Shown here: piece after piece, positions 6,639-64,000 of the stretch | How the letters are laid out: each line of letters begins with the position of its first letter | Position numbering within the stretch: position 1 is the first letter of the stretch | Sequence record: MK295205 | Source: Shigella phage vB_SflM_004 | Length of the DNA: 64,000 nt | Strand: one strand, 5' to 3' | Notes under the pieces: model-generated | Told to the model about the DNA's origin: nothing | Seen by the model: only the letters and a program-made list of their open reading frames with translations | Database searches by the model: none | Made by a program: the position numbers and the translations under genes

Positions 6639-6959
6639 TTACAGACTTTTGATTGTCTCGTCAATATCTTTTTCAATTTCTCTTAAAGTTTTTTCTAAGT
6701 TCTTGATATTCAGCATTAACCCCTCTCCCAGTGTCTTAGCGTAACCATTTGGGCGATGGTCATAAAGCTCGATTTCTTCCACTTCGTAAAGGCTGACATT
6801 GAAGCCCCCTACCCCGTAGGCTGTGGATGAAGTGCCTTCCGGTGCTTTGTAGTACTTATTGAGATTCTTTAAAGAGCGCTCGTAAGCCATACGATAACCG
6901 TTTAACACTGTTTTAGTTGCCTTAATAGCAATCTCGTACACCTTCACACTGTACCGCAT
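6639..6959 (-). CDS. hypothetical early protein
   Basis: 106-aa ORF; weak RBS; alternative ATG at 6890; overlaps the upstream gene end. Confidence 0.4.
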   Translation of the reverse strand: MRYSVKVYEIAIKATKTVLNGYRMAYERSLKNLNKYYKAPEGTSSTAYGVGGFNVSLYEVEEIELYDHRPNGYAKTLGEGLMLNIKNLEKTLREIEKDIDETIKSL

Positions 6960-7179
6960 ACTTTTCTAAGAACAGCGGGAGGAGTTCCGCTACCGCTTGC
7001 ATGAAGTTCGATACTACAACGGTAGAAACATTACGACGATGAACGTAATAAGCCCCGTTTTCTGATTTAGTGATAGTTGCGAAATGTTCACCATTGCAAC
7101 GGAATTCATAGGTATCTTTTACAGGCTTGGACATTACATGATTTGAACGAATGTAGTTGATAGCTTGAAACTTGTTCAT
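6922..7179 (-). CDS. hypothetical early protein
   Basis: 85-aa ORF; ggagattctaaaATG start. Confidence 0.5.
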   Translation of the reverse strand: MNKFQAINYIRSNHVMSKPVKDTYEFRCNGEHFATITKSENGAYYVHRRNVSTVVVSNFMQAVAELLPLFLEKYAVQCEGVRDCY

Positions 7180-26908: not shown

Positions 26909-27166
26909 TTATTTAGCCTTCTTGTTACGTTTACGGTTACGAGCTTTCTTAGCTGCCCGTTTAATAGCTGCTGCACCAGTTGGTCGATGCGCTTGTTTTT
27001 TACCACCTTTGCCACGGCCTACATAGATACTTTTCATAATCTCATTAGCCAGCTTCTCATCCATCTTGAAGTTTTGCATGAGATGAGTCACATCAACACC
27101 AGTGAGCATACCTAGTGATGCCAGTGCTGCTTTTACTTTTGATTTAAAACTGTTCCAGAGTCCCAT
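26909..27166 (-). CDS. hypothetical protein with strongly basic C-terminal tail
   Basis: 85 aa; tail AAAIKRAAKKARNRKRNKKAK. Confidence 0.4.
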   Translation of the reverse strand: MGLWNSFKSKVKAALASLGMLTGVDVTHLMQNFKMDEKLANEIMKSIYVGRGKGGKKQAHRPTGAAAIKRAAKKARNRKRNKKAK

Positions 27167-27921
27167 TTCGTATCTCTCTCAATCTTTTCACAAAATGTTT
27201 TAAGTTCTTCTTCAGTGACACCAACAATACTGTCACCGACATTTAAATTTGTCGCGTAAAAGTTTGAGAAATGTGCTTTGTATTTTACTTTAAATACTCC
27301 GGCGTCCTCAATCTGCTTCAAGGCTGTCATTCCAGTGGAATCAAATAGGCTTTTTGTGTAGTTTCTCCACTCTTCAAGAGTTTCTGGATTGACTTTATAG
27401 CTACCAAACAGTGACATGTTACAAGCTACCATAACAATCTCACCACGTTTGAATCCACCATTTTCTGCTCGCCATTGACAATCACCTTGCCACCCATACT
27501 CTTTTCTCCAGAGGTTTTGGTTATCAGAACCGCGATAAGGTTTAACTGTTGGTTTAGATGAATCATACTTGCCGTCAATCACCACGTCAACATATTTCAT
27601 CACATCTAAGTGAATTTTTTCGTGTAACTGAAAACCTGTCCAAAGCCATATAGACTTCTCTGGGTAAACTGTCTTAATACGTTTGCAAATGTTGGTGACC
27701 TCTCGAATATTTCTATCATCCAGAGGTTCTCCACCAAGTATTGACAATCCACTAACGGCATTATCACCCATTAATTGGATGATTCCATAAAGGTTTGCAT
27801 AAGTAAACTCTTTACCAGCATTAAACTTCCAAGATTCCCTGTTAAAGCAGCCTTCACAGTGGTGCTTACAACCAGCTACAAAGAGGCTTACACGAACCCC
27901 TTCACCATTAGCGTGTGTCAA
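27133..27921 (-). CDS. nrdG: anaerobic ribonucleotide reductase activating protein (radical SAM)
   Basis: GEGVRVSLFVAGCKHHCEGCFN Cys cluster near the N-terminus; apparent TTG start with GGAG RBS ~10 nt upstream (no in-frame ATG nearby). Confidence 0.8.
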   Translation of the reverse strand: MTHANGEGVRVSLFVAGCKHHCEGCFNRESWKFNAGKEFTYANLYGIIQLMGDNAVSGLSILGGEPLDDRNIREVTNICKRIKTVYPEKSIWLWTGFQLHEKIHLDVMKYVDVVIDGKYDSSKPTVKPYRGSDNQNLWRKEYGWQGDCQWRAENGGFKRGEIVMVACNMSLFGSYKVNPETLEEWRNYTKSLFDSTGMTALKQIEDAGVFKVKYKAHFSNFYATNLNVGDSIVGVTEEELKTFCEKIERDTKWDSGTVLNQK

Positions 27922-27981
27922 ATGGTCGAATCTCCATGTAATTCATCTAGTTACCTCACCAATATTATTTAATTGTTTTAC

Positions 27982-28377
27982 TCATTCAAACACTACCTGA
28001 CAAGGAACCTGTTTAGTAATAAATTCTTCACAGTGTTCTTTAATGAAGTTTTGTAATGGCACACAGTCTTGTGCGCAAGTCATTAGCATAATGTACTCTG
28101 GATTCATGATATTTTCAAGACTGTAGAAGACAACATCACCAGATAGTTCGTGACCATCTTCTTCAGACCAAGTTCCAGTGACTACAGCTAATTTGTCAAG
28201 CAATTCATTAGGCAATGCTACACCGTCTTCTACGGAGTCACTTAGAACGTTGTCGCTGATGTACAATGTGAAGACCGTGTGGAATGTTGAGTATCTTACG
28301 TGATTCTTTTCGCAAGAGCCACACTCTGAGGCATAATCTTTAATCCACTCTAACTGTTTTTGGTTCAACTTAATCAT
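27982..28377 (-). CDS. hypothetical protein
   Basis: 131-aa ORF with AAGGTGA RBS. Confidence 0.45.
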   Translation of the reverse strand: MIKLNQKQLEWIKDYASECGSCEKNHVRYSTFHTVFTLYISDNVLSDSVEDGVALPNELLDKLAVVTGTWSEEDGHELSGDVVFYSLENIMNPEYIMLMTCAQDCVPLQNFIKEHCEEFITKQVPCQVVFE

Positions 28378-28847: not shown

Positions 28848-30992
28848 TTACATAGAGATTCTGTCACGAATCTCAGCGATTTTTGCATCGTTCATTCGGG
28901 ATTCACCTTTAATCTTAGTCCATCCAAGATACCCACACACCCTGTTAATCACAGAGATATCATGTGAATGGCAAACCTCACATTCCTCAACATCAGCCTT
29001 TGGTCTGTTACCACAATGCTCACAGATTGCTAAGTCAAAGTTAAGCCCCTGATAAAAACCTTTCAACATCCCTCTTGTAATACAACTTTTAAGTGCTGGT
29101 AAGTTTTCTGGGTTAGCTACTCTTACATACTGGATTCTGCCACCTCTACAGATATGGAAGAATGGCTCTTCTAAGTCCTGCTTCTCAAATGGTGAGATGT
29201 CTGCTGCAACATTCATATGGAAACTGTTTGTAAAGTATTCTTTGTCAGAAACACCTTTAATAACACCAAACATATCTCTGAACTGTTTTAACTGAGTTCC
29301 ACAAAGTGATTCTGCTGGAGTGCCATAGACTGCATATAAGAAACCATCTTCATTTTTAAACTCTTCAGTCTTCATGTTGATGTATGCCAGAACATCGTAT
29401 GCAAAACTATAGCTTCCAACTTCATGAAGTCGTTTACCTTCAGCAAGAACAGATAACTCATCAAGTGCAGTAACCCCAAAAGAAGCTGTGAAGGACTTCA
29501 CGATATCCCAACCAACCTTATCAGTAGGTTTCTTAGTGCCTTTGTACAGACCGCCTTGTGTGAATGCAAGAGGGTTAGAACTTGCTGGCATATTAGCAAT
29601 CATTTCGTAGCGTTTCTTGTGGAAGCTGCGAATCATCTCTAGGTACTTATCAAGCTCTTTCCAGAAGTCTAAACCATTCTCTTTAGAATACTGGTAAATC
29701 ATTGGCAAGTTCAAAGATACAGCACCAATGTTAGCACGACCAACATAGAACTCTTCCCCATCCTCATTAAGATATGGAGATAAGAAGGCTCTGCAACCCA
29801 TCGGTGAAATCACCTTGCCAGAACGCTCAAAAGCCTCTGCTACAGCACCGTGACCAGATACACTTAAGAAATCTGGATACATTGCTTTAGAGCAACACTC
29901 AATAGCTTTACTGTACAGGTGACCTTGACAGATATTTTCATCATGTCTCTTCTGGTCATAGATATAAACCAGTTTAGGGAATACAACAGGTTTTTTGCTC
30001 TTACCTTGTCCATTCATACGAACATCTAAGAGAGTACTTGCAATCATGTATTGTAGTCGGTTGTCTTCATTAGACATATCTGAGTCAAGTAGTCCGAATG
30101 TCAAAGTTGTGAATGCAAAATCACCACGGCTGCAAGGTACAGTGTTCAGTTTCATTTCAAGTGACTGAAAACCTTGAGTTAATTCAATCTGTAGCTGCTC
30201 CATGACATAATTATGGTAATGTTCTTTAGGAATACCATAAGATGCTGCTTTCTCAGCATGGTAGCGTAGAGACTTCTTAGCATACGGTACAAGTACCTTA
30301 TCAATCTCTGCTAAAGTAAAGCCGCCAAATTGCTGTGCAGTTGCTGAAAGAACTACATCACCAATAACCTGTAAGGCTGACAGTACAGACTTCGGTTCAC
30401 AGTATTCGATGCCAGACATTTCAAAGCCACCTTTCAGTACTTTACCAATGTCAAACAGACAACAGTTGATACCACCAAAAATTAGGTCTCTTAAGTCATG
30501 GATGTAGATAAACCCTTTTTCAATGGCTTCAAGTTCCTCTGGTGTTAAATGGTACTGTTTAAAGATTTCTTTAGTCAGATAACCACGAATAATTGAGCCT
30601 TTTGTGGAAATTAAACTGCTGTCAAAGTTAGCATTTTCACGGTCACCTAAGAAGAGTGTGTCTCTAGTCTTTTGGTAAAGCTCATCCCAATTTTGAGCAA
30701 CCTCTTTACGGTAATTTCTATATGTTGAGTAAGACTCATAAATCTCGTGATTGACTTCTGCCAAAGCACCCTCAACAATACTGTGAATATCATTTACCGA
30801 GATTAGCAAATTATTCTGCTTAGTGGACTTTACCAGAATCCTCATAAATGCTGACTCAAGAGCTTGGGTAACATCTGGTGGAAGTTCTTTATACCCAACC
30901 CTGTTAGCTGACTTAGTTACTGCTGCTAAAACTTTTTTGATATCAGGTTCTTCAAGTGAGCCATTCTTTTTAATAATCTGTACTTTGTTCAT
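28848..30992 (-). CDS. nrdD: anaerobic ribonucleoside-triphosphate reductase, class III
   Basis: 714 aa; N-terminal ATP-cone; C-terminal glycyl-radical motif RVCGYLG; Zn-binding CEHCG...CEVCH. Confidence 0.9.
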   Translation of the reverse strand: MNKVQIIKKNGSLEEPDIKKVLAAVTKSANRVGYKELPPDVTQALESAFMRILVKSTKQNNLLISVNDIHSIVEGALAEVNHEIYESYSTYRNYRKEVAQNWDELYQKTRDTLFLGDRENANFDSSLISTKGSIIRGYLTKEIFKQYHLTPEELEAIEKGFIYIHDLRDLIFGGINCCLFDIGKVLKGGFEMSGIEYCEPKSVLSALQVIGDVVLSATAQQFGGFTLAEIDKVLVPYAKKSLRYHAEKAASYGIPKEHYHNYVMEQLQIELTQGFQSLEMKLNTVPCSRGDFAFTTLTFGLLDSDMSNEDNRLQYMIASTLLDVRMNGQGKSKKPVVFPKLVYIYDQKRHDENICQGHLYSKAIECCSKAMYPDFLSVSGHGAVAEAFERSGKVISPMGCRAFLSPYLNEDGEEFYVGRANIGAVSLNLPMIYQYSKENGLDFWKELDKYLEMIRSFHKKRYEMIANMPASSNPLAFTQGGLYKGTKKPTDKVGWDIVKSFTASFGVTALDELSVLAEGKRLHEVGSYSFAYDVLAYINMKTEEFKNEDGFLYAVYGTPAESLCGTQLKQFRDMFGVIKGVSDKEYFTNSFHMNVAADISPFEKQDLEEPFFHICRGGRIQYVRVANPENLPALKSCITRGMLKGFYQGLNFDLAICEHCGNRPKADVEECEVCHSHDISVINRVCGYLGWTKIKGESRMNDAKIAEIRDRISM

Positions 30993-36780: not shown

Positions 36781-37278
36781 TCAAGCACAGTTTGCTTTCA
36801 TTACCTTATGGATTCTTTTTTCAGCATCTTCATAAGTTTCTTTAGTAATAAACTTAATTGCTGCAATATTGGCATTGTAGAAGAGTCTGAGCTTAGAGTC
36901 AATCCTTTTTGTCATTACATCGAATTTATGTTGAAGGTTTGCTTCACCATAAACTAGACCACCTTTTGTGTAGTAGGTTTGAATAATGTAAAAGTCAAAA
37001 AACTCTTTTCCAAAACTCTCAATATCTTTTTTAATATACTCAGAAGAAGTCTCATAAGTCATCCAATCACTTTCCTTAGTGACTACCTTCTTCCGAGTCT
37101 TACCAGCAACTTTTCTTTTGGTCACACTATTAAGCTGTTTCTTTCCAATATAGTATTGTCCGGTTTTCTTACAGTGTACTAAATAGACAAAACCAAAATG
37201 TTTAGTGGGGTCAACTTCCCCACATAAAGATACCCAATGACCATAGGTGGGACAATTGCCAAATCCTTTAATCTTCAT
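36781..37278 (-). CDS. GIY-YIG-like domain protein (possible homing endonuclease)
   Basis: FGFVYLVHCKKTGQYYIGKK resembles the GIY...YIG core; adjacent to an HNH endonuclease. Confidence 0.4.
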   Translation of the reverse strand: MKIKGFGNCPTYGHWVSLCGEVDPTKHFGFVYLVHCKKTGQYYIGKKQLNSVTKRKVAGKTRKKVVTKESDWMTYETSSEYIKKDIESFGKEFFDFYIIQTYYTKGGLVYGEANLQHKFDVMTKRIDSKLRLFYNANIAAIKFITKETYEDAEKRIHKVMKANCA

Positions 37279-37774
37279 TCATACACGGCTCCTGATTTGT
37301 GAACTCTCTGTGAAGTTCTTCTCTTTTCTTTCTAATTGCTTCTTTGGCATCATCAACGTTATCAAACAGACCAAGGAAATGTGTTACACCGTGAACCATA
37401 ATCCTTGCTCTCCACTTCTGTGAAGCTTTGTTGAATGATACACCTTTTACACCAGATGTATTGTTGGAGTGTATTTTTCTATTCCAACAATTTTCAGCTT
37501 GAGTGCAAACTCTCAAGTTCATTCTTCGGTTGTCATCAGTAATTCCGTTACGATGGTCTACACGGTCTGGTAAGAACCCCTCTGTGTAAAGAATGGCTAA
37601 ATCATGAGCCATGTATGATTTTCTCTTTATGGTAATCCTGATATAACCCCTTTTATGGGGTGTTCCAGCAACTGAACCAATGACTGTCCTATTAGCCGAT
37701 TTCTTCAACCAAGTAAAGACCCCTGTTTCGGGGTCATAATGAAGATACTCTTTAAGTGTCTGCTGAGTCAACAT
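37268..37774 (-). CDS. HNH homing endonuclease (HNH + AP2-like domain)
   Basis: 168 aa; YDPETGVFTW, VDHRNGITDDNRRMNL HNH core, GVKGVSF...ARI AP2-like. Confidence 0.75.
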   Translation of the reverse strand: MLTQQTLKEYLHYDPETGVFTWLKKSANRTVIGSVAGTPHKRGYIRITIKRKSYMAHDLAILYTEGFLPDRVDHRNGITDDNRRMNLRVCTQAENCWNRKIHSNNTSGVKGVSFNKASQKWRARIMVHGVTHFLGLFDNVDDAKEAIRKKREELHREFTNQEPCMNED

Positions 37775-47378: not shown

Positions 47379-47634
47379 TGGTGTTGAAATGATGCTCATG
47401 GAAGAGTACCTTATACTATATATTGTATAGGAGACTTGTATGACTATTTCAGAAATTGAAGTTCAACTGCAATGTGCTGGATATTCTCAAAGTGAGATTG
47501 AGGCTATGTGCATCATCATTTGCAGTAGCCATAAGCACCTCAAGCTTTCCAGAAATTCGTCTTAAGGTTGATATTTTTATTGCTGGAGGTAAGATTATCA
47601 AGGATAAGACAGGCTACCTTAAAGGTGAACGTCT

Positions 47635-47844
47635 ATGAGCCATCGTGGAAGAACTCATCTTGCCATGATGCAAGGTGCTTCAAAAGAGACTATCAAGAAT
47701 CGGAAGAAAACTCTTTTTGACAGAATGAATAGACTCATTGATAATGCAAGCCTACCTAACTCTGAAAAGGTTTTCTTGAAAGGGAATCTGAAGAGTATTG
47801 CACAGGAACTTATTGACATTGAATTTTGGAGACACCAAAAATGA
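47635..47844 (+). CDS. hypothetical small protein (cassette ORF1)
   Basis: 69 aa (MSHRGRTHLAMMQGASKETIKNRKK...). Confidence 0.4.
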   Translation: MSHRGRTHLAMMQGASKETIKNRKKTLFDRMNRLIDNASLPNSEKVFLKGNLKSIAQELIDIEFWRHQK

Positions 47845-48092
47845 CATACGCAGACGTTATTCAGCAACTTCACGACAACTGCTATACCCCAGAGTTGATT
47901 CAGGAGATGTGTATTGTAGTGATGCCTAGCAAGTTCGTAAAAGCCTTTAGAAATGAAAATTTCACATCTGATGAGTTCTTTGAAATAAAAGACGGAAAGG
48001 TTGTATGTGAAATGGGTTACCCAATGGCTGCATGGTACAAGGGGGAACCTTGGCAGAAAACTGGATGGAGTATCTTTAATGAAACTTTATAG
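47826..48092 (+). CDS. hypothetical small protein (cassette ORF2)
   Basis: 88 aa (MTYADVIQQL...[11 protein letters not shown]...). Confidence 0.4.
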   Translation: METPKMTYADVIQQLHDNCYTPELIQEMCIVVMPSKFVKAFRNENFTSDEFFEIKDGKVVCEMGYPMAAWYKGEPWQKTGWSIFNETL

Positions 48093-50001: not shown

Positions 50002-50369
50002 TACTCCGGGATTAAGCAAGATGCACGGGGGGGGGGTTAAATTAAAGTAACTGGTGTCAAAACTGATAAACGTGGTCATGGTAAGTTCGTTGTAGAGACT
50101 CTTCCTAACGTCCCTATCTGGGTTGCCAAAAGGTGTACAGAAGATAAGTAAAAGCCCTGAAGAGTTTATCGGGAAACCTTTAACTGTTCAGTTCCAGAAG
50201 ATGAGTTTCGAGCAATGATACGTTTATTATCATTGGCTTACTTCACAAGTAAACTCTTAAGTATAACATACAAAGCCAAGGTAAAAACTATCATCTTGGT
50301 ATGTTTGACACACCGTAACTGACTTAGAAAATTTGGTGAGTATACTGAGCATCATAAACCAACGGGTAC

Positions 50370-54813: not shown

Positions 54814-55253
54814 ATGATTAAGTTAATTTTTGCAAGTGGTATTAACGGGGAGTTTGGCACAGCTACTGGAATGCCTTGGCCTCGTAATAAACAGATTTTA
54901 GGAAGCAGACTGTTAACCAGTTAGTCTTGATGGGTAGCGAAACTTGGAAGACTCTTGGGAGCAAGCCTTTGCCAAACCGTGAGAACATTGTCTTGACAAA
55001 CTCTCTTGACTTTTATGGTCTGGATTTTAAAGATGACTCTCATTGTAAAGCAAGAGTTAAGCCTGAAGCTTTTGGGGCTTTCCTGAAGTATATTGATAGC
55101 TCTATTGATGAAGATGTTTTAGTAATCGGTGGAGCCAATATCTTAATCTCAGCTTTGCCGTATGCTGACGTAGTTTTCCACAGCGTCATTCAGGAAGTTA
55201 CAGGACAGGTAATCACCGAATTGCTTGGTGGGTTTCTTCCAGTACTTGTATGA
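54814..55253 (+). CDS. frd: dihydrofolate reductase, with an apparent -1 frameshift near 54880-54900
   Basis: N-terminal MIKLIFASGINGEFGTATGMPWP in one frame, then DFRKQTVNQLVLMGSETWKTLGSKPLPNRENIVLT...VIGGANILISALPYAD in another; AAGGA RBS. Confidence 0.7.
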
Positions 55254-56237
55254 CACAGATTTATTTGCTAAAGTACAGTCCAAACCTCTGGATGACAGGT
55301 AAGTGGCCTGACAAACACATTGACCACAAAGAAGAGGGCTTTTCTAATATGTCACAAGCAGATGTAAGCTACAAAGCTATTTTAAACCATGTTTTATCAG
55401 TTGGTGAGTTGCGTAAAACCAGAACTGGCTCAGTGATTTCTACCTTTGCTCCACCTGAGTTCCGTTTTGATATGCGTAGTGGATTTCCATTAATCACCTC
55501 AAAACAAACGTTTATGCGTCAAGTCCTCGGTGAAGCATTATGGTTTATGAACGGTGAAAACCAACTAGGCCATTTGCGTTACAGAACTTGGGGGGAGAAT
55601 GACGGAGAGCGTTGGACTATCTGGACAGATGATTTTAAACGTTGGTTGAAAACAACCTATGCTACAGAGAATGATTGGCTGGAGGACGCTGGAGGAAGAA
55701 TCTATGGAGTCCAATGGAGAGCCTACGAAGGTCATGGTGGAGTTGTTGGAGATGGTTTGAATAACGCTTGGGACAATCTAAGAGAGGCCACAAAAGAACA
55801 GAACATGTCTAATAACGCATGGAATGCAGCAGATATATCAAGTAACTCTATGGCATTAGCACCTTGCCATGTACTTTTTCAGATTTACATCTCGAACACT
55901 AATGAGGTAGATTTGAAATGGTATCAGCGCTCTTGTGATACGTTCTTAGGATTACCATTTAACATTGCTTCCTATGCCTTTATCTTGGAAGTGTTGTGTA
56001 AACTGACGGGGTATACACCGCGATATCTGATTGGTACTTATGGTGATACTCAAATCTATCAGAACCATATGTCGCAGGTTTTTCAGCTTCTTGGTAATGG
56101 AGACAACCTAGAACATCAATCAAGATTTGAAGTCTCTTGAAGACTTGAGACATATGACAGCAGATGACTTCCTAGGTGGGTTGAAAGGGTATAAACATGC
56201 TGGTAAGATTGAAGCACCTTTATCAGTAGGTAAGTAA
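55250..56237 (+). CDS. td: thymidylate synthase, with an apparent +1 frameshift near 56110
   Basis: MALAPCHVLFQIY (catalytic Cys), RSCDTFLGLPFNIASYAF, YGVQWRAY; the C-terminal ...DDFLGGLKGYKHAGKIEAPLSV continues in another frame after the ORF stop at 56140; true start may be the internal ATG at ~55349. Confidence 0.75.
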
Positions 56238-57899: not shown

Positions 57900-59440
57900 C
57901 TAAGTTGAACCAACGTTGAAACCTGTACCACCATAGAGTCTTAAAGTTGCTGTTGATGGTGTTTGTGGCATTGTTACAGTAGCAATTTTCACCCAACCAC
58001 TGTCATAAGTTGTTGCATTCATAGCAGTAGCTCTTGAGAATACAGTATTAGCAACACTTTGTGTGTAGTACCTTGCATCAAAGTTAGATACATCTGTAGG
58101 GATAACTTGACCTTCAACTCTTAAAGGTTTATTGAGATAAGCTACATCCCTTAACTCTAGATATGTATTCACTGACAAGGTGCTCAGGGAAGAGTACCTT
58201 AGTCTGCTACCTTCACCGTTACCAACATACCAACGTCGCATCAGTACTATCTTTTGCAATAACCCCGTTGCTATTCATTGGCTGGGTAGCTGTCCCACTT
58301 TGCAATGTGAAAGCAGCATCTGTAGTAACAATAGTTTGAGCACCTGTGAAAGTGTTTGCAGAGTTATTTCTTGCAAGACTACTTAATAAAGAGCTTACAA
58401 TATCTTATATAGGAGGACTTATGAGCCACCGTGGAAGAACCCATGCAGCGATGATGAAAGGTGCTTCAAAGGAGACACCAGATGAGTAGAGTCTCATAGT
58501 TGCACCTGTCATCTGGTTAAACAAGTTAACATCCTGCTTAGTCCCATCAGGTTGACCAAGATACCAAGACTCTGAACCAGAACCTGCGTAGGCTTGAACA
58601 AATACTGCACCGTTTGCTGTAGCTGGTTTCAATCTAAGCAAAGACCCATCAGAAATAATTGTCTGATAGTTTGTGAAGTTGTTTGCACCTGAGAAGGTAT
58701 TATTTTCAGTTAGTCTTGCAAATCTTTGGTCAGCAGCTATCAAAAATCGTAAGCAGAAGTTGTTTGAGAGAATGAACAGGTTAATTGACAATTCATCTCT
58801 TTCAGGTTCTGAGAAGGTTTTTAACTAGGGAACCGGTCTTGTTGTTGTAGAAAATAACATCGTCACTTCCGAATCATTACCTACATACCACCTATTAGCT
58901 CCAGTACTATCCTGGCTACAATAGCGGAGTATGCCTCACTTGCACCAGCAGGGGTCTTCAGTGTCATAGCTTCACCATTTGCTTGAATAACTTGTTGGGA
59001 GGTAAAGATGTTATTTGCAGCTAGTCTTGAGTATCTTGCATCATTTTCCTCATTTGTTCTCATACCTAATTCATTAGGAGATGGTTTATTAAGTGTGTGA
59101 TAAACTGTTGCAGACCTTGAAGCATCTGCAATAGTTAGTCTAAGACCGTTTGAGTTAATTTTAAATCTTGAAAGGTAATCTGAAAAGCATTGCACAAGAA
59201 CTTGTAGAATAAATCTTTTCCACCGTAAGTTAACTTAACAATACCCAGATTACCTGTCATATTCCCGCCAGCTAATTGCAAGAATCTTTCAAGTCTGAAT
59301 GAAGCTAAGAAATTTGCATAGGTCATTTTACGGTCTTCATCACCTAGCATATCAGACCTTTTAATTACTCTCAAATGTAATAGGTCGTCTGAGCGAACTG
59401 TATCAATTGTGTTTAGTTCACTTAGTTTGTATTCAGCCAT
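57900..59440 (-). pseudogene. tail-fibre repeat region broken into at least four ORFs, with embedded cassette fragments
   Basis: ORFs 57900-58259, 58405-58791, 58881-59195 and 59135-59440 carry tail-fibre-like repeats (RL..NN.F.G.N.F...QTI); cassette-derived fragments at ~58394-58476, ~58738-58823 and ~59166-59207; frequent frame changes. Confidence 0.35.
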
Positions 59441-60677: not shown

Positions 60678-62061
60678 TTAGCTCCCTTTATATTCGTATG
60701 TGTAAAGGTTAGTCGTGCTAGTGGGTGCAGTTCCTGTTACTGTGTCAATTAATTCCCAACCATTGGAAACTAAATCAGGTTGCTCCGTAGCAAATGAACG
60801 AACCTCTCCAACCGTACCATTTACTTTGTTAAGCAAATAGTTAATAATATAGTTAAACCACTGGCGACCCATAGGCTCTCCCCTTAATAGGCCAGTGGCT
60901 TGAATTTCTGGAGGTGGTAATACTTTAAGCTGGTTACTCCCTTCTTGTTGTGATTTATCTTTTCTACCTTTGACGATTTGAGCAACTTCTGCCATAATAC
61001 CATAATCGCCACCAGTTACCATTTCTTTACCAGCAATAAAATAGTCACTGCTATTGTTTGTCTTGCTGACTTTCATATAATCTTTACTGGTACTTCCACC
61101 AGTTTTGTCAACTCTAAAGTAACCATCCCTAATACCAGCATCTGCAAAGCTACCAAGCTTGTTAGCCTCCAGAGAACCACCTGTGTTGTTCGTAATAAGA
61201 CCCTTGTTAGTGTCTGTAACAAACCAGTTGTTGTTCTCATCAGTAATTGCCAGACGTTATTCAGCAACTTCTACAGGAGTCCACGCAGTACCATTTAGCG
61301 TAATATCTCTTATGATAACTGCTACACTAATAGTTGCCAGAGTTAATTCAGGAGATGTGTATGCTGTATCTACAACGTTGTTTCGAGTGTTTACACGAAC
61401 AACAATACCACCCGTCATAGGTGTGATATGTTCAAAGATTTGACTAAACGTTGCATTGTAGTGATGCCTAGCAAGTTCGTAAAAGCCTTTAACAGTGACA
61501 CTTTAAGGTCTGCACCAAATGCACGAATACCAGCAGGTTTTGTGTCCCAGATTGCTTGTGCGATGTTAACATTCTTATTGTTGAAAGAAGAAGCCCATAA
61601 AGCTTACTGTGAAGCCCATCATAATTTGTAGTCTCTGTGTCGTTCTCTACACCAGAAGCATCAGATACACCTTGAACCCTCTTGACAGCAGCTACAATAG
61701 CATCTAAAGTACCTACACCAGTAACGGCTAAGGATTCTAGATAACGCTGTCTAAGTTCTGTATCAGTTTCTTCGTTACGACCTGCTGTTAAATCGTATCT
61801 GTTAAATACCCCATCAAGACCATCTACAGTCGTTTCAATCTCAATAAAAACTCCACGGAGAGTTTGCAAAACTCCAGTTTCTTCAGCTACAACGTCACTA
61901 ATTGATACAATCTTTGTAAATGTTAGGAAGGTCGTTGCAGTTACAACCATAGGGTTTGTTCTTGCAATGATATCTCCAGTATCTTTATAGATTCTCAGAA
62001 GAGAACCGTCATTGATGACTTCAGCTTTTGCTGCAATACCACCATTGATAGAGTCTGCCAA
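60678..62061 (-). pseudogene. virion structural (baseplate/tail-fibre-like) coding region, fragmented
   Basis: ORFs 60678-61076 and 61489-62061 separated by frame breaks; cassette fragments at ~61251-61272, ~61336-61362 and ~61451-61512. Confidence 0.3.
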
Positions 62062-62117: not shown

Positions 62118-62650
62118 TTGACAAGGTGCCCTTATACAATATCTTATATAGGAGGGCTTATGAGCCACCGTGGAAGAACCCATGCAGCGATGATGAAAGG
62201 TGCTTCAAAGGAGACTATCAAGAATCGTAAGCAGAAGTATTTCAAATGTGGTGTCATCTGTTGTTACTTTATTCTTTTGAGATGTTTGAGAGAATGAACA
62301 GGCTAATTGACAATTCATCTCTTTCAGGTTCTGAGAAGGTTTTCTTGAAAGGTAATCTGAAAAGCATTGCACAAGAACTTATTGACATTGAGTATTGGAG
62401 ACATCAAAAATGACACTTGCAGACGTTATTCAGCTCCAGAGTTAATTCAGGAATGTCCATTGTAGTCATGCCTAGCAAGTTCGTAAAAACCTTTAACAAC
62501 GACGCTTTAAGGTCTACACACATCCTTATCGTGATTGCAAAAGACCGTACTGGAGTACTCAAAGGTGAACGTATTGATATTCTGGAGTCTGGGGAAGTGT
62601 TGGTAAAGGTTTTGACTGGACACTTCTTCGTGATTCCTTAAAAGTTCTGG
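62118..62650 (+). repeat. small-gene cassette, copy 2 (promoter-like leader, ORF1 with a 46-nt insertion, ORF2 variant)
   Basis: ttgacaaggtgcccttatacaatatcttatataggagggcttATG leader; MSHRGRTHAAMMKGASKETIKNRKQK... reading frame; ORF 62417-62641. Confidence 0.6.
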
Positions 62651-62690: not shown

Positions 62691-62739
62691 CTTATTAGGA
62701 TTTGTCAAACGTTAAACGTAGTGATTGTTGAAGTGTAGT

Positions 62740-63144
62740 CTAACTTCTCACAACCAAAAATCCAAGTTTTAGAGTTCTGGTCACGTCCAAGTTCAATCTG
62801 TGGAAGCTCTTGCAACCAAGCATTATTACCAGAACTGAACCGGATGGGTCATAAATTACGAAGTTAGATGAAATGTCTTCTTCAAGTTCCATGTCATCTT
62901 GTTTAGCTTGAATTGCAGAAAGCATCTGGTTAGATAGAGAAGTCTGCATTAGCTCAATCTCAATCGTACCTGTTTTATCTGCGTTTCTTGTCAGAGCTAC
63001 TTGACCACCTGCACCTACAACTGGCGTAACAAGTGGAGAAGTTCTCTGAAGACGTAAGAATGAGTCTGGTGCAAAACCTTCAATGGCAATGCCATTCCAG
63101 CTACAAACTACATCTTTAGGGGAATATTGCTGATACATAGCCAT
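62740..63144 (-). CDS. putative virion structural protein
   Basis: 134-aa ORF in the structural block; no specific motif. Confidence 0.35.
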   Translation of the reverse strand: MAMYQQYSPKDVVCSWNGIAIEGFAPDSFLRLQRTSPLVTPVVGAGGQVALTRNADKTGTIEIELMQTSLSNQMLSAIQAKQDDMELEEDISSNFVIYDPSGSVLVIMLGCKSFHRLNLDVTRTLKLGFLVVRS

Positions 63145-63159
63145 TCCTATTTACTCCTA

Positions 63160-63468
63160 TTATTCGTAAGCCACTGTGCCTTTCAAGTCCACATCCAAGA
63201 TTGCCCCTGCTAAGATACCGTGGAAGGTAATGTCTTTCAGGATACGAGCTTTCTTATCTGCAAGTGATACTTGTGAGGCTTTAGGAACAGTAACGGTATA
63301 AGTAGACAAAAAGTTTCTGTTAACTGCTCTCTGAAGAGATGTTTCAATGACCTGACGAACACGAGTAATACCTGTATCATCATAAGTAATCTTACCACCC
63401 TTCTGATTAATTAGCAAGTCTCTTAGAGAAGTTTTCAAGTCTGATTCAAGCCAATCGACATCACTCAT
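63160..63468 (-). CDS. putative virion structural protein
   Basis: 102-aa ORF; 3-nt gap to the upstream ORF, so possibly one frame-broken gene. Confidence 0.35.
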   Translation of the reverse strand: MSDVDWLESDLKTSLRDLLINQKGGKITYDDTGITRVRQVIETSLQRAVNRNFLSTYTVTVPKASQVSLADKKARILKDITFHGILAGAILDVDLKGTVAYE

Positions 63469-63471
63469 TAT

Positions 63472-63816
63472 TTAAAAACATACACCACCAGAAGTGATAC
63501 CTCTACGCACTACGAGAGGTAGACTATCGTGAACAATAAGGTTACAGCTACGTGCATCAAGTGCTGACTTCTGAATGCTTGTCAGAGGTCTCTTGTTAGC
63601 TGGCTGCATAGATGCTGCTACACCAGTTAACTGAGCATTACCCCAAGCAATAGAACCTGCATCGTATGGAGCACCATAAGCAATGTAAGCCATTTCTGGG
63701 TAGTCAAAGCTTGCTGTGTGATGCCATAGACATACTGTACGAGTGTACTTACTCTTAGAGAGTTGTGTGAAAGCAATGGTTGCAGAAGCCAGTTCAGTTC
63801 CTTGCAGAGCTTTCAT
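63472..63816 (-). CDS. putative virion structural protein
   Basis: 114-aa ORF in the same block. Confidence 0.35.
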   Translation of the reverse strand: MKALQGTELASATIAFTQLSKSKYTRTVCLWHHTASFDYPEMAYIAYGAPYDAGSIAWGNAQLTGVAASMQPANKRPLTSIQKSALDARSCNLIVHDSLPLVVRRGITSGGVCF

Positions 63817-64000
63817 GTCATTGCTTGCCTTGGAGTAATTTTTCTATCTGGCTGTAATCCCTCATTGCAGTAACGAACTGTGAAGTTCTGTCTTCAGTTG
63901 CAATAAAGTACCAATCAGTTGAGTACGTTTCAATTGCAGCCAGAGCTACAGAAGCACTATCAGCAGTTGTTGCAGAGATTGAAAGAGTCTGTGCAGTTGT

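Follow-up and report, generated by a model that had tools for sequence, protein, structure and literature searches.

The deposited sequence of Shigella phage vB_SflM_004 (MK295205) appears to start its nrdG gene on a TTG codon, which raises the question of whether this is a genuine non-ATG start or a trace of an error in the sequence. The window analysed here is a 64,000-nucleotide stretch of that record, in which the ORF in question occupies 27921..27133 on the minus strand (262 aa) and includes GEGVRVSLFVAGCKHHCEGCFN, the Fe-S cluster motif of NrdG, whose CxxxCxxC is encoded at 27870-27847. An earlier note on this DNA had stated that the ORF has no in-frame ATG or GTG before the upstream stop codon, and reading of the minus strand shows that this is true. 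The nearest upstream stop in the frame is the TGA at 27945-27943, eight codons ahead of the TTG at 27921-27919, and the codons between them (ATT ACA TGG AGA TTC GAC CAT) leave the TTG as the sole conventional start. The note was equally right that a GGAGA precedes the TTG by about 10 nt; we measured this GGAGA (27935-27931) at 9 nt ahead, the distance being 9-10 nt if GGAG is considered. The ATT at 27942-27940 was tried as another start for the same frame and was rejected, because it comes directly after the stop and is unsupported; ATT is a very rare initiator codon.

The relatives of this phage place the nrdG start elsewhere. All 35 relative loci that we examined (L001-L035), as well as the Logan contigs, use an ATG that lies in the window at 27944..27946 (minus strand), 25 nt 5' of the TTG and in a different frame. 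This ATG stands 6 nt behind the Shine-Dalgarno sequence GGTGAGGT (27953..27960, minus strand), which is identical in all Felix-like relatives and of which GAGGT is kept in the Moogle-like ones. From it the window encodes MNYMEIRPFDT, in keeping with the canonical N-terminal pattern of NrdG, MNY...P.D..NG.G.R. After these 11 codons the frame breaks at an extra C (27913, minus strand), leaving an orphaned N-terminal fragment of 12 codons, MNYMEIRPFDTR, followed by a TAA at 27910-27908 (27908..27946 in all, minus strand). This short ORF overlaps the TTG, and its first 33 nt are identical to the corresponding DNA of SP116 and of the Logan contig L075. Stop-start coupling through the TAATG at its end was also considered and rejected, since the ATG of this TAATG belongs to the third frame, in which it would yield only MVKGFV*.

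In alignments the extra C is a frameshifting insertion of 1 nt, with GACACACGCT in the window against GACACA-GCT in relatives. REP5, P54, SP116, Moogle, pEC-M719 and LF110P1 all carry GACACA-GCTAAT (Asp-Thr-Ala-Asn) where the window has GACACACGCTAAT, one C more. A start at the conserved ATG, leading into MNY/MNF-MEIR.FDTANGEG and free of the extra C, was found in 35/35 relatives and in six to eight further Logan assemblies, and the product is 161 aa long in 34 of the 35; altogether we recovered 42 distinct intact relative coding sequences. The one exception in length, a Felixounavirus contig (L033, IMGVR_UViG_2706796256_000001, 1501-1982), has its own, different 1-nt nrdG frameshift that leaves a product of 114 aa, so that broken nrdG calls are not unique to MK295205. 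An insertion-bearing 39-mer had no match in IMG/VR, in the metagenome collection or in the GTDB genome collection; the same 39-nt pattern minus the C had 32 matches (21 and 11) in the two collections scanned.

These comparisons bear on both elements on which the TTG call relied. The TTG (27919..27921, minus strand) spans two codons of the true frame, taking its first two bases from the end of Phe9 and its third from the start of Asp10 (TTT-GAC), and the GGAGA taken as its ribosome-binding site (27931..27935, minus strand) is part of the codons Met4-Glu5-Ile6 of that conserved frame. Moogle-like relatives have TTC-GAT at the TTG position, so the TTG is conserved neither as a start nor even as a codon. 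Orthologs had been proposed as a check, on the expectation that they might show an ATG at the position of the TTG; they show none there, reading TTT-GAC or TTC-GAT and carrying their ATG 25 nt upstream. The idea of a genuine non-ATG start thus found no support among orthologs, which have Phe9-Asp10 at this position and start at the upstream ATG. The other idea raised at the time, a base error, had the direction right but not the kind: there is no ATG-to-TTG substitution, and the change is instead the 1-nt insertion of C 27913, 33 nt downstream of ATG 27946. In our reading, the apparent start on TTG does not reflect a genuine feature of the phage.

Ribosomes that begin at the ATG could in principle restore the frame themselves, by shifting within ACA-CAC-GC-TAA to make full-length NrdG. 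Judged from the sequence, a +1 shift at the CGC-TAA stop would restore a protein of exactly ortholog length that reads DTRNGEG, the sole change being Ala12-to-Arg, and ACACAC would permit perfect -2 re-pairing of the ACA-reading tRNA-Thr, giving DTHANGEG. The nearest known system is the prfB-type +1 frameshift (CUU UGA C preceded by an SD-like element), with which the window shares a 0-frame stop right after the point where a shift would restore the frame. Unlike prfB, however, the window has no slippery P-site codon, and no SD-like stimulator is visible at the prfB-type spacing; CGC is unable to re-pair in +1. Moreover, programmed shifts are conserved, whereas this site occurs in none of 75 or more relative sequences. 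Recoding would also leave unexplained the lost stop codon at the other end of the gene, and we regard it as extremely improbable, though formally possible.

This lost stop codon is the second one-base lesion. A stop stands immediately 3' of QWR(A/T)E in 35/35 relatives, as TAA, TAG or TGA, whichever allele comes next. The window lacks this codon's T (GCAGAA^AATGG, 27462..27463, minus strand). The junction reads GCAGAA-AATGGTGG, where Moogle has ACAGAGTAATGGTGG and the Felix-like L009 has GCAGAATAA, from which one stop-codon T is absent between 27463 and 27462. The form deposited is GAAAATGG, as opposed to the T-containing form GA(A/G)TAATGG, and the junction pattern of the window had no match in IMG/VR viral contigs. 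With this T lost the NrdG frame runs into the next, unrelated gene, giving 262 aa instead of 161. The span 27133-27921 that had been assigned to nrdG does contain the NrdG body, but because the stop is destroyed it also covers most of the following gene.

The gene read through in this way is phrog_5082, of unknown function, most of which lies in frame at 27133..27462 (minus strand; PHROG match at residues 163-247, 3.5e-38). PHROGs splits the 262-aa ORF into phrog_626 (NrdG, residues 2-150) and phrog_5082 (residues 163-247, without the first 13 model positions); the ORF exceeds NrdG by some 100 aa, and residues ~154-262 belong to phrog_5082. Wherever the gene table of a relative was read, it listed this gene as an ORF of its own (91-125 aa), overlapping the end of nrdG by 38 nt. 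The window still has the ATG at which the gene usually starts (27497-27495), though no longer in frame, and an internal ATG (27432-27430) is preceded by GGTGAG (27444-27439). The repaired downstream ORF (121 aa) gave no match in an exact protein look-up, unlike the repaired NrdG.

The 3' lesion sits exactly where the window changes over from Felix-like to Moogle-like sequence. Within Felix-like surroundings, at least 180 nt (27440-27261, minus strand) are 100% identical to Citrobacter phage Moogle, and Felix-like identity is back at ~27200. A switch of nearest relative, the signature of a chimeric join, was also sought at the 5' insertion, and none was found there; only the 3' lesion coincides with such a switch. 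This position is compatible with a chimeric join and with an imprecise natural recombination joint alike. The DNA directly 3' of the nrdG stop is a replacement hot-spot in L001-L035, with at least six unrelated alleles following ...QWRAE-stop, some of them without the phrog_5082 gene.

Once the C is deleted and the T put back, the gene encodes 161 aa, a protein that occurs verbatim, as P0046, in a 15-billion-protein collection and that is found on eight independent Logan contigs. The closest of these contigs, L075, has 98.3% nrdG DNA identity and the same upstream intergenic sequence, with GACACAGCT and GAG TAA. The 262-aa protein (AZV01432.1 in GenBank), by contrast, is on one contig only and is missing from assemblies derived from Logan/SRA; its 90% cluster counts 304 members, and all the others listed have 161 aa. 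The repaired gene differs from its four closest relatives at 8-18 codons, all of them synonymous, and from other Felix-like relatives by 27-36 synonymous and 2-7 non-synonymous differences. Since only synonymous differences separate the repaired gene from its closest relatives, the frame from the ATG to QWRAE*, which is preserved here apart from the two lesions, is the one maintained by selection, with no decay.

The body of the protein, from Ala12 to Glu161 (27463..27912, minus strand), is that of a radical-SAM activase with NGEGVR, CKHHCEGC (27870-27847) and GGEP (Pfam Fer4_12, 4e-42; TIGR02491). CKHHCEGC and ILGGEP are present in the translation of the TTG ORF and align to PFL-AE 3C8F; a PDB search returned PFL-AE only, at ~1e-5, and no NrdG structure that might show what residues 1-10 do. 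The [4Fe-4S] ligands of the phage NrdG are Cys26, Cys30 and Cys33 in the repaired numbering. Against TIGR02491 (NrdG equivalog, curated cutoff 126.1 bits), the TTG product scores 184.4 bits over model positions 11-153 and the repaired product 195.8 bits over positions 1-153, a gain of 11.4 bits; positions 1-10 are not in the TTG ORF, being encoded upstream in the other reading frame. Of an NrdG one would expect a stand-alone protein of ~155-161 aa that ends after QWR(A/T)E, and the deposited ORF, with its 262 aa, departs from this.

The partner gene, nrdD (28848..30992, minus strand), is intact and encodes a class III ribonucleotide reductase of 714 aa (Pfam NRDD 8e-114, plus ATP-cone) with the glycyl-radical motif RVCGY at residue 684; it has the same length in L072, L074 and L075. 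The [4Fe-4S] cluster of NrdG reductively cleaves SAM, and the 5'-deoxyadenosyl radical then takes H from the glycine of NrdD RVCGY. The region matches Felix O1-like phages. Felixounavirus and Mooglevirus have in common with the window the gene order nrdD, small ORFs, a 131-aa ORF, nrdG and an overlapping small ORF, and their NrdG (161 aa; Salmonella phage Mushroom AJF40541.1; P0046) is matched by the repaired window protein, identical to P0046. The deposited gene differs from theirs in having its first 11 codons out of frame and no stop, and its TTG-started 262-aa ORF is unique to the record. With the NrdG of E. coli and phage T4 (TIGR02491; PF13353 Fer4_12) the window likewise shares CxxxCxxC, NGxGxR, GGE, a length of ~155-160 aa and a nearby nrdD; after repair there is no difference, whereas the deposited form has model positions 1-10 out of frame. 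The 131-aa ORF upstream of nrdG (27982-28377, minus strand) is named 'tail tube protein' (AZV01433.1), which is probably a mis-annotation: Pfam gives no match for it, and the remaining cluster members listed are called 'hypothetical'.

A possible objection is that the deposited ORF is nevertheless functional, an N-terminally shortened NrdG started at a genuine TTG and fused to a phrog_5082 domain in a new architecture. Such a protein would retain the NGxGxR, CxxxCxxC and GGE motifs and a score above the TIGR02491 cutoff, but it would lose the first 10 model positions, which are conserved in the family, and its phrog_5082 part would be cut off from the usual N-terminus. The GGAG at 9-10 nt is a feature that the TTG shares with genuinely TTG-initiated bacterial and phage genes; in contrast to those, it is the counterpart of no ortholog codon, is unconserved, being missing in Moogle-like relatives, and lies inside a short ORF that has a much stronger SD-ATG. 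This SD-ATG, 25 nt upstream, would load ribosomes on the 12-codon ORF that overlaps the TTG, and both the TTG and the GGAGA are incidental in conserved codons of another frame. Finally, the architecture is found in one record only. We judge a functional TTG-started fusion to be very improbable. An equally slim chance attaches to the broader proposal that both one-base changes are real and that the NrdG-phrog_5082 fusion is expressed either from the TTG or by a -2/+1 shift on ACACAC-GC-TAA. If that were so, it would hint that phrog_5082, which in these phages always overlaps the 3' end of nrdG, works with the anaerobic reductase system.

A more serious alternative is that both lesions are real mutations, and that nrdG is a very recent pseudogene, or is at best weakly expressed from the TTG, in an aerobically propagated phage. 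The class III ribonucleotide reductase, including nrdG, is dispensable in aerobic culture, as in the nrdD/nrdG system of T4, so that a genuine inactivating mutation would be tolerable, and the independent frameshift of L033 is an instance of a broken nrdG in another contig. Against a pseudogene, there is no decay (0 non-synonymous changes relative to the closest relatives) and nrdD is intact; and that two independent one-base lesions should have struck a single gene of 486 nt as a recent event is unlikely. The 3' lesion could conceivably be an imprecise joint, given its position exactly at the natural recombination hot-spot where at least six alleles meet. Also on the side of real mutations, the inserted C lies outside any homopolymer and is therefore not a typical base-calling error, and the sequence was determined by Illumina HiSeq at the high coverage of 4,115x, with assembly by SOAPdenovo v2.04 at default settings (PMC7925395).

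The judgement between real mutations and errors of assembly draws on the quality of the record. The phage formed plaques and has a contractile tail, of which relaxed and contracted states were measured (PMC7925395). In the window, the tail sheath gene (63160-63870, minus strand), compared with that of Citrobacter phage Moogle (95% nt identity), has a 5-nt deletion at ~63861 and an in-frame stop at 63474-63472, together with short densely substituted patches. The tail tube / virion structural protein gene (62705-63144, minus strand) has a 7-nt deletion at ~62830, past which the Moogle-identical NAWLQELPQIELGRDQNSKTWIFGCEKLDYTSTI (the C-terminal 34 aa) goes on in a shifted frame. To our knowledge, a plaque-forming myovirus cannot have broken sheath and tube genes. 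Such lesions being impossible in a viable phage, the record holds assembly-level errors of the same kind as those in nrdG, and a common cause in artefact is the more economical explanation for all of them. Real mutations in nrdG we consider unlikely on this account, though far less so than either recoding or a functional fusion.

Two further genes of the window are similarly interrupted. On the plus strand, thymidylate synthase has an 11-nt deletion at 56115, after which a C-terminus identical to that of Sf17 continues in the other frame (56115-56234), and also a 66-nt patch (55748-55813) unlike Sf17; in DHFR, on the same strand, 2 nt are deleted at 55230. The poor quality does not extend to the assembly throughout, since 52 of 56 long ORFs are frame-consistent with the Felixounavirus ULIM8. 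This count comes from frame tracking at the level of ORFs, which was used in place of a list of DNA gaps between the window and ULIM8; that list, of 345 gaps mostly in divergent or intergenic DNA, was too noisy and was dropped. On the minus strand at 6639-7179, a 176-aa ORF of ULIM8 is split over two frames at ~85% identity, which could be divergence or a further lesion.

The genome is described as having 0 tRNAs, as carrying two rIIA/rIIB pairs, one at either end, and as showing a '~10 kb deletion' (PMC7925395); ULIM8 has more than 20 tRNAs, which makes their absence here unusual. The same description states that ATG is used in all ORFs (PMC7925395), which the deposited TTG-started CDS contradicts. 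At 50027-50036 there is a G10 homopolymer, in a region that aligns poorly with the ligase region of ULIM8, and this may be an assembly or sequencing artefact. Three partial copies (47610-47973, 58396-58821, 61454-61515, 62135-62519) were found of a small gene whose ULIM8 counterpart (36940-37357) is situated downstream of DNA polymerase, and from 57.6 to 62.6 kb the ~11.5-kb block of ULIM8 for tail fibre, baseplate and tape measure is present in fragments only; together these suggest rearrangement or mis-assembly. The tail and thymidylate synthase regions of the window are also Mooglevirus-like, and the genome could be mosaic by nature, or the assembly could have joined two co-isolated phages into a chimera.

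The reading that we favor, and hold to be probable, is that the window carries a frameshifted but otherwise ordinary Felix O1-like nrdG whose lesions are most likely assembly errors in MK295205. The gene starts at ATG 27946 behind GGTGAGGT; in the deposited sequence the extra C at 27913 shifts its frame after codon 11, and the missing T abolishes its stop after Glu161. With these two changes an ORF finder reports the 262-aa frame, with an incidental TTG as its only start, running into the next gene. The two one-base lesions, their restriction to this record and the otherwise perfectly preserved frame from the ATG to QWRAE* are observed directly; that they are errors of the published assembly, and not mutations of the phage, we infer from the equivalent frame-breaking lesions in genes that are indispensable to a viable myovirus.

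These results bring nothing new for translation initiation or for class III ribonucleotide reductase; their bearing is on curation. Several other frame-breaking lesions are present in MK295205, and the record is unsuitable as a reference without re-assembly; AZV01432.1, the 262-aa protein with a TTG start, is a mis-call in which a frameshifted nrdG is fused to the gene that follows it.
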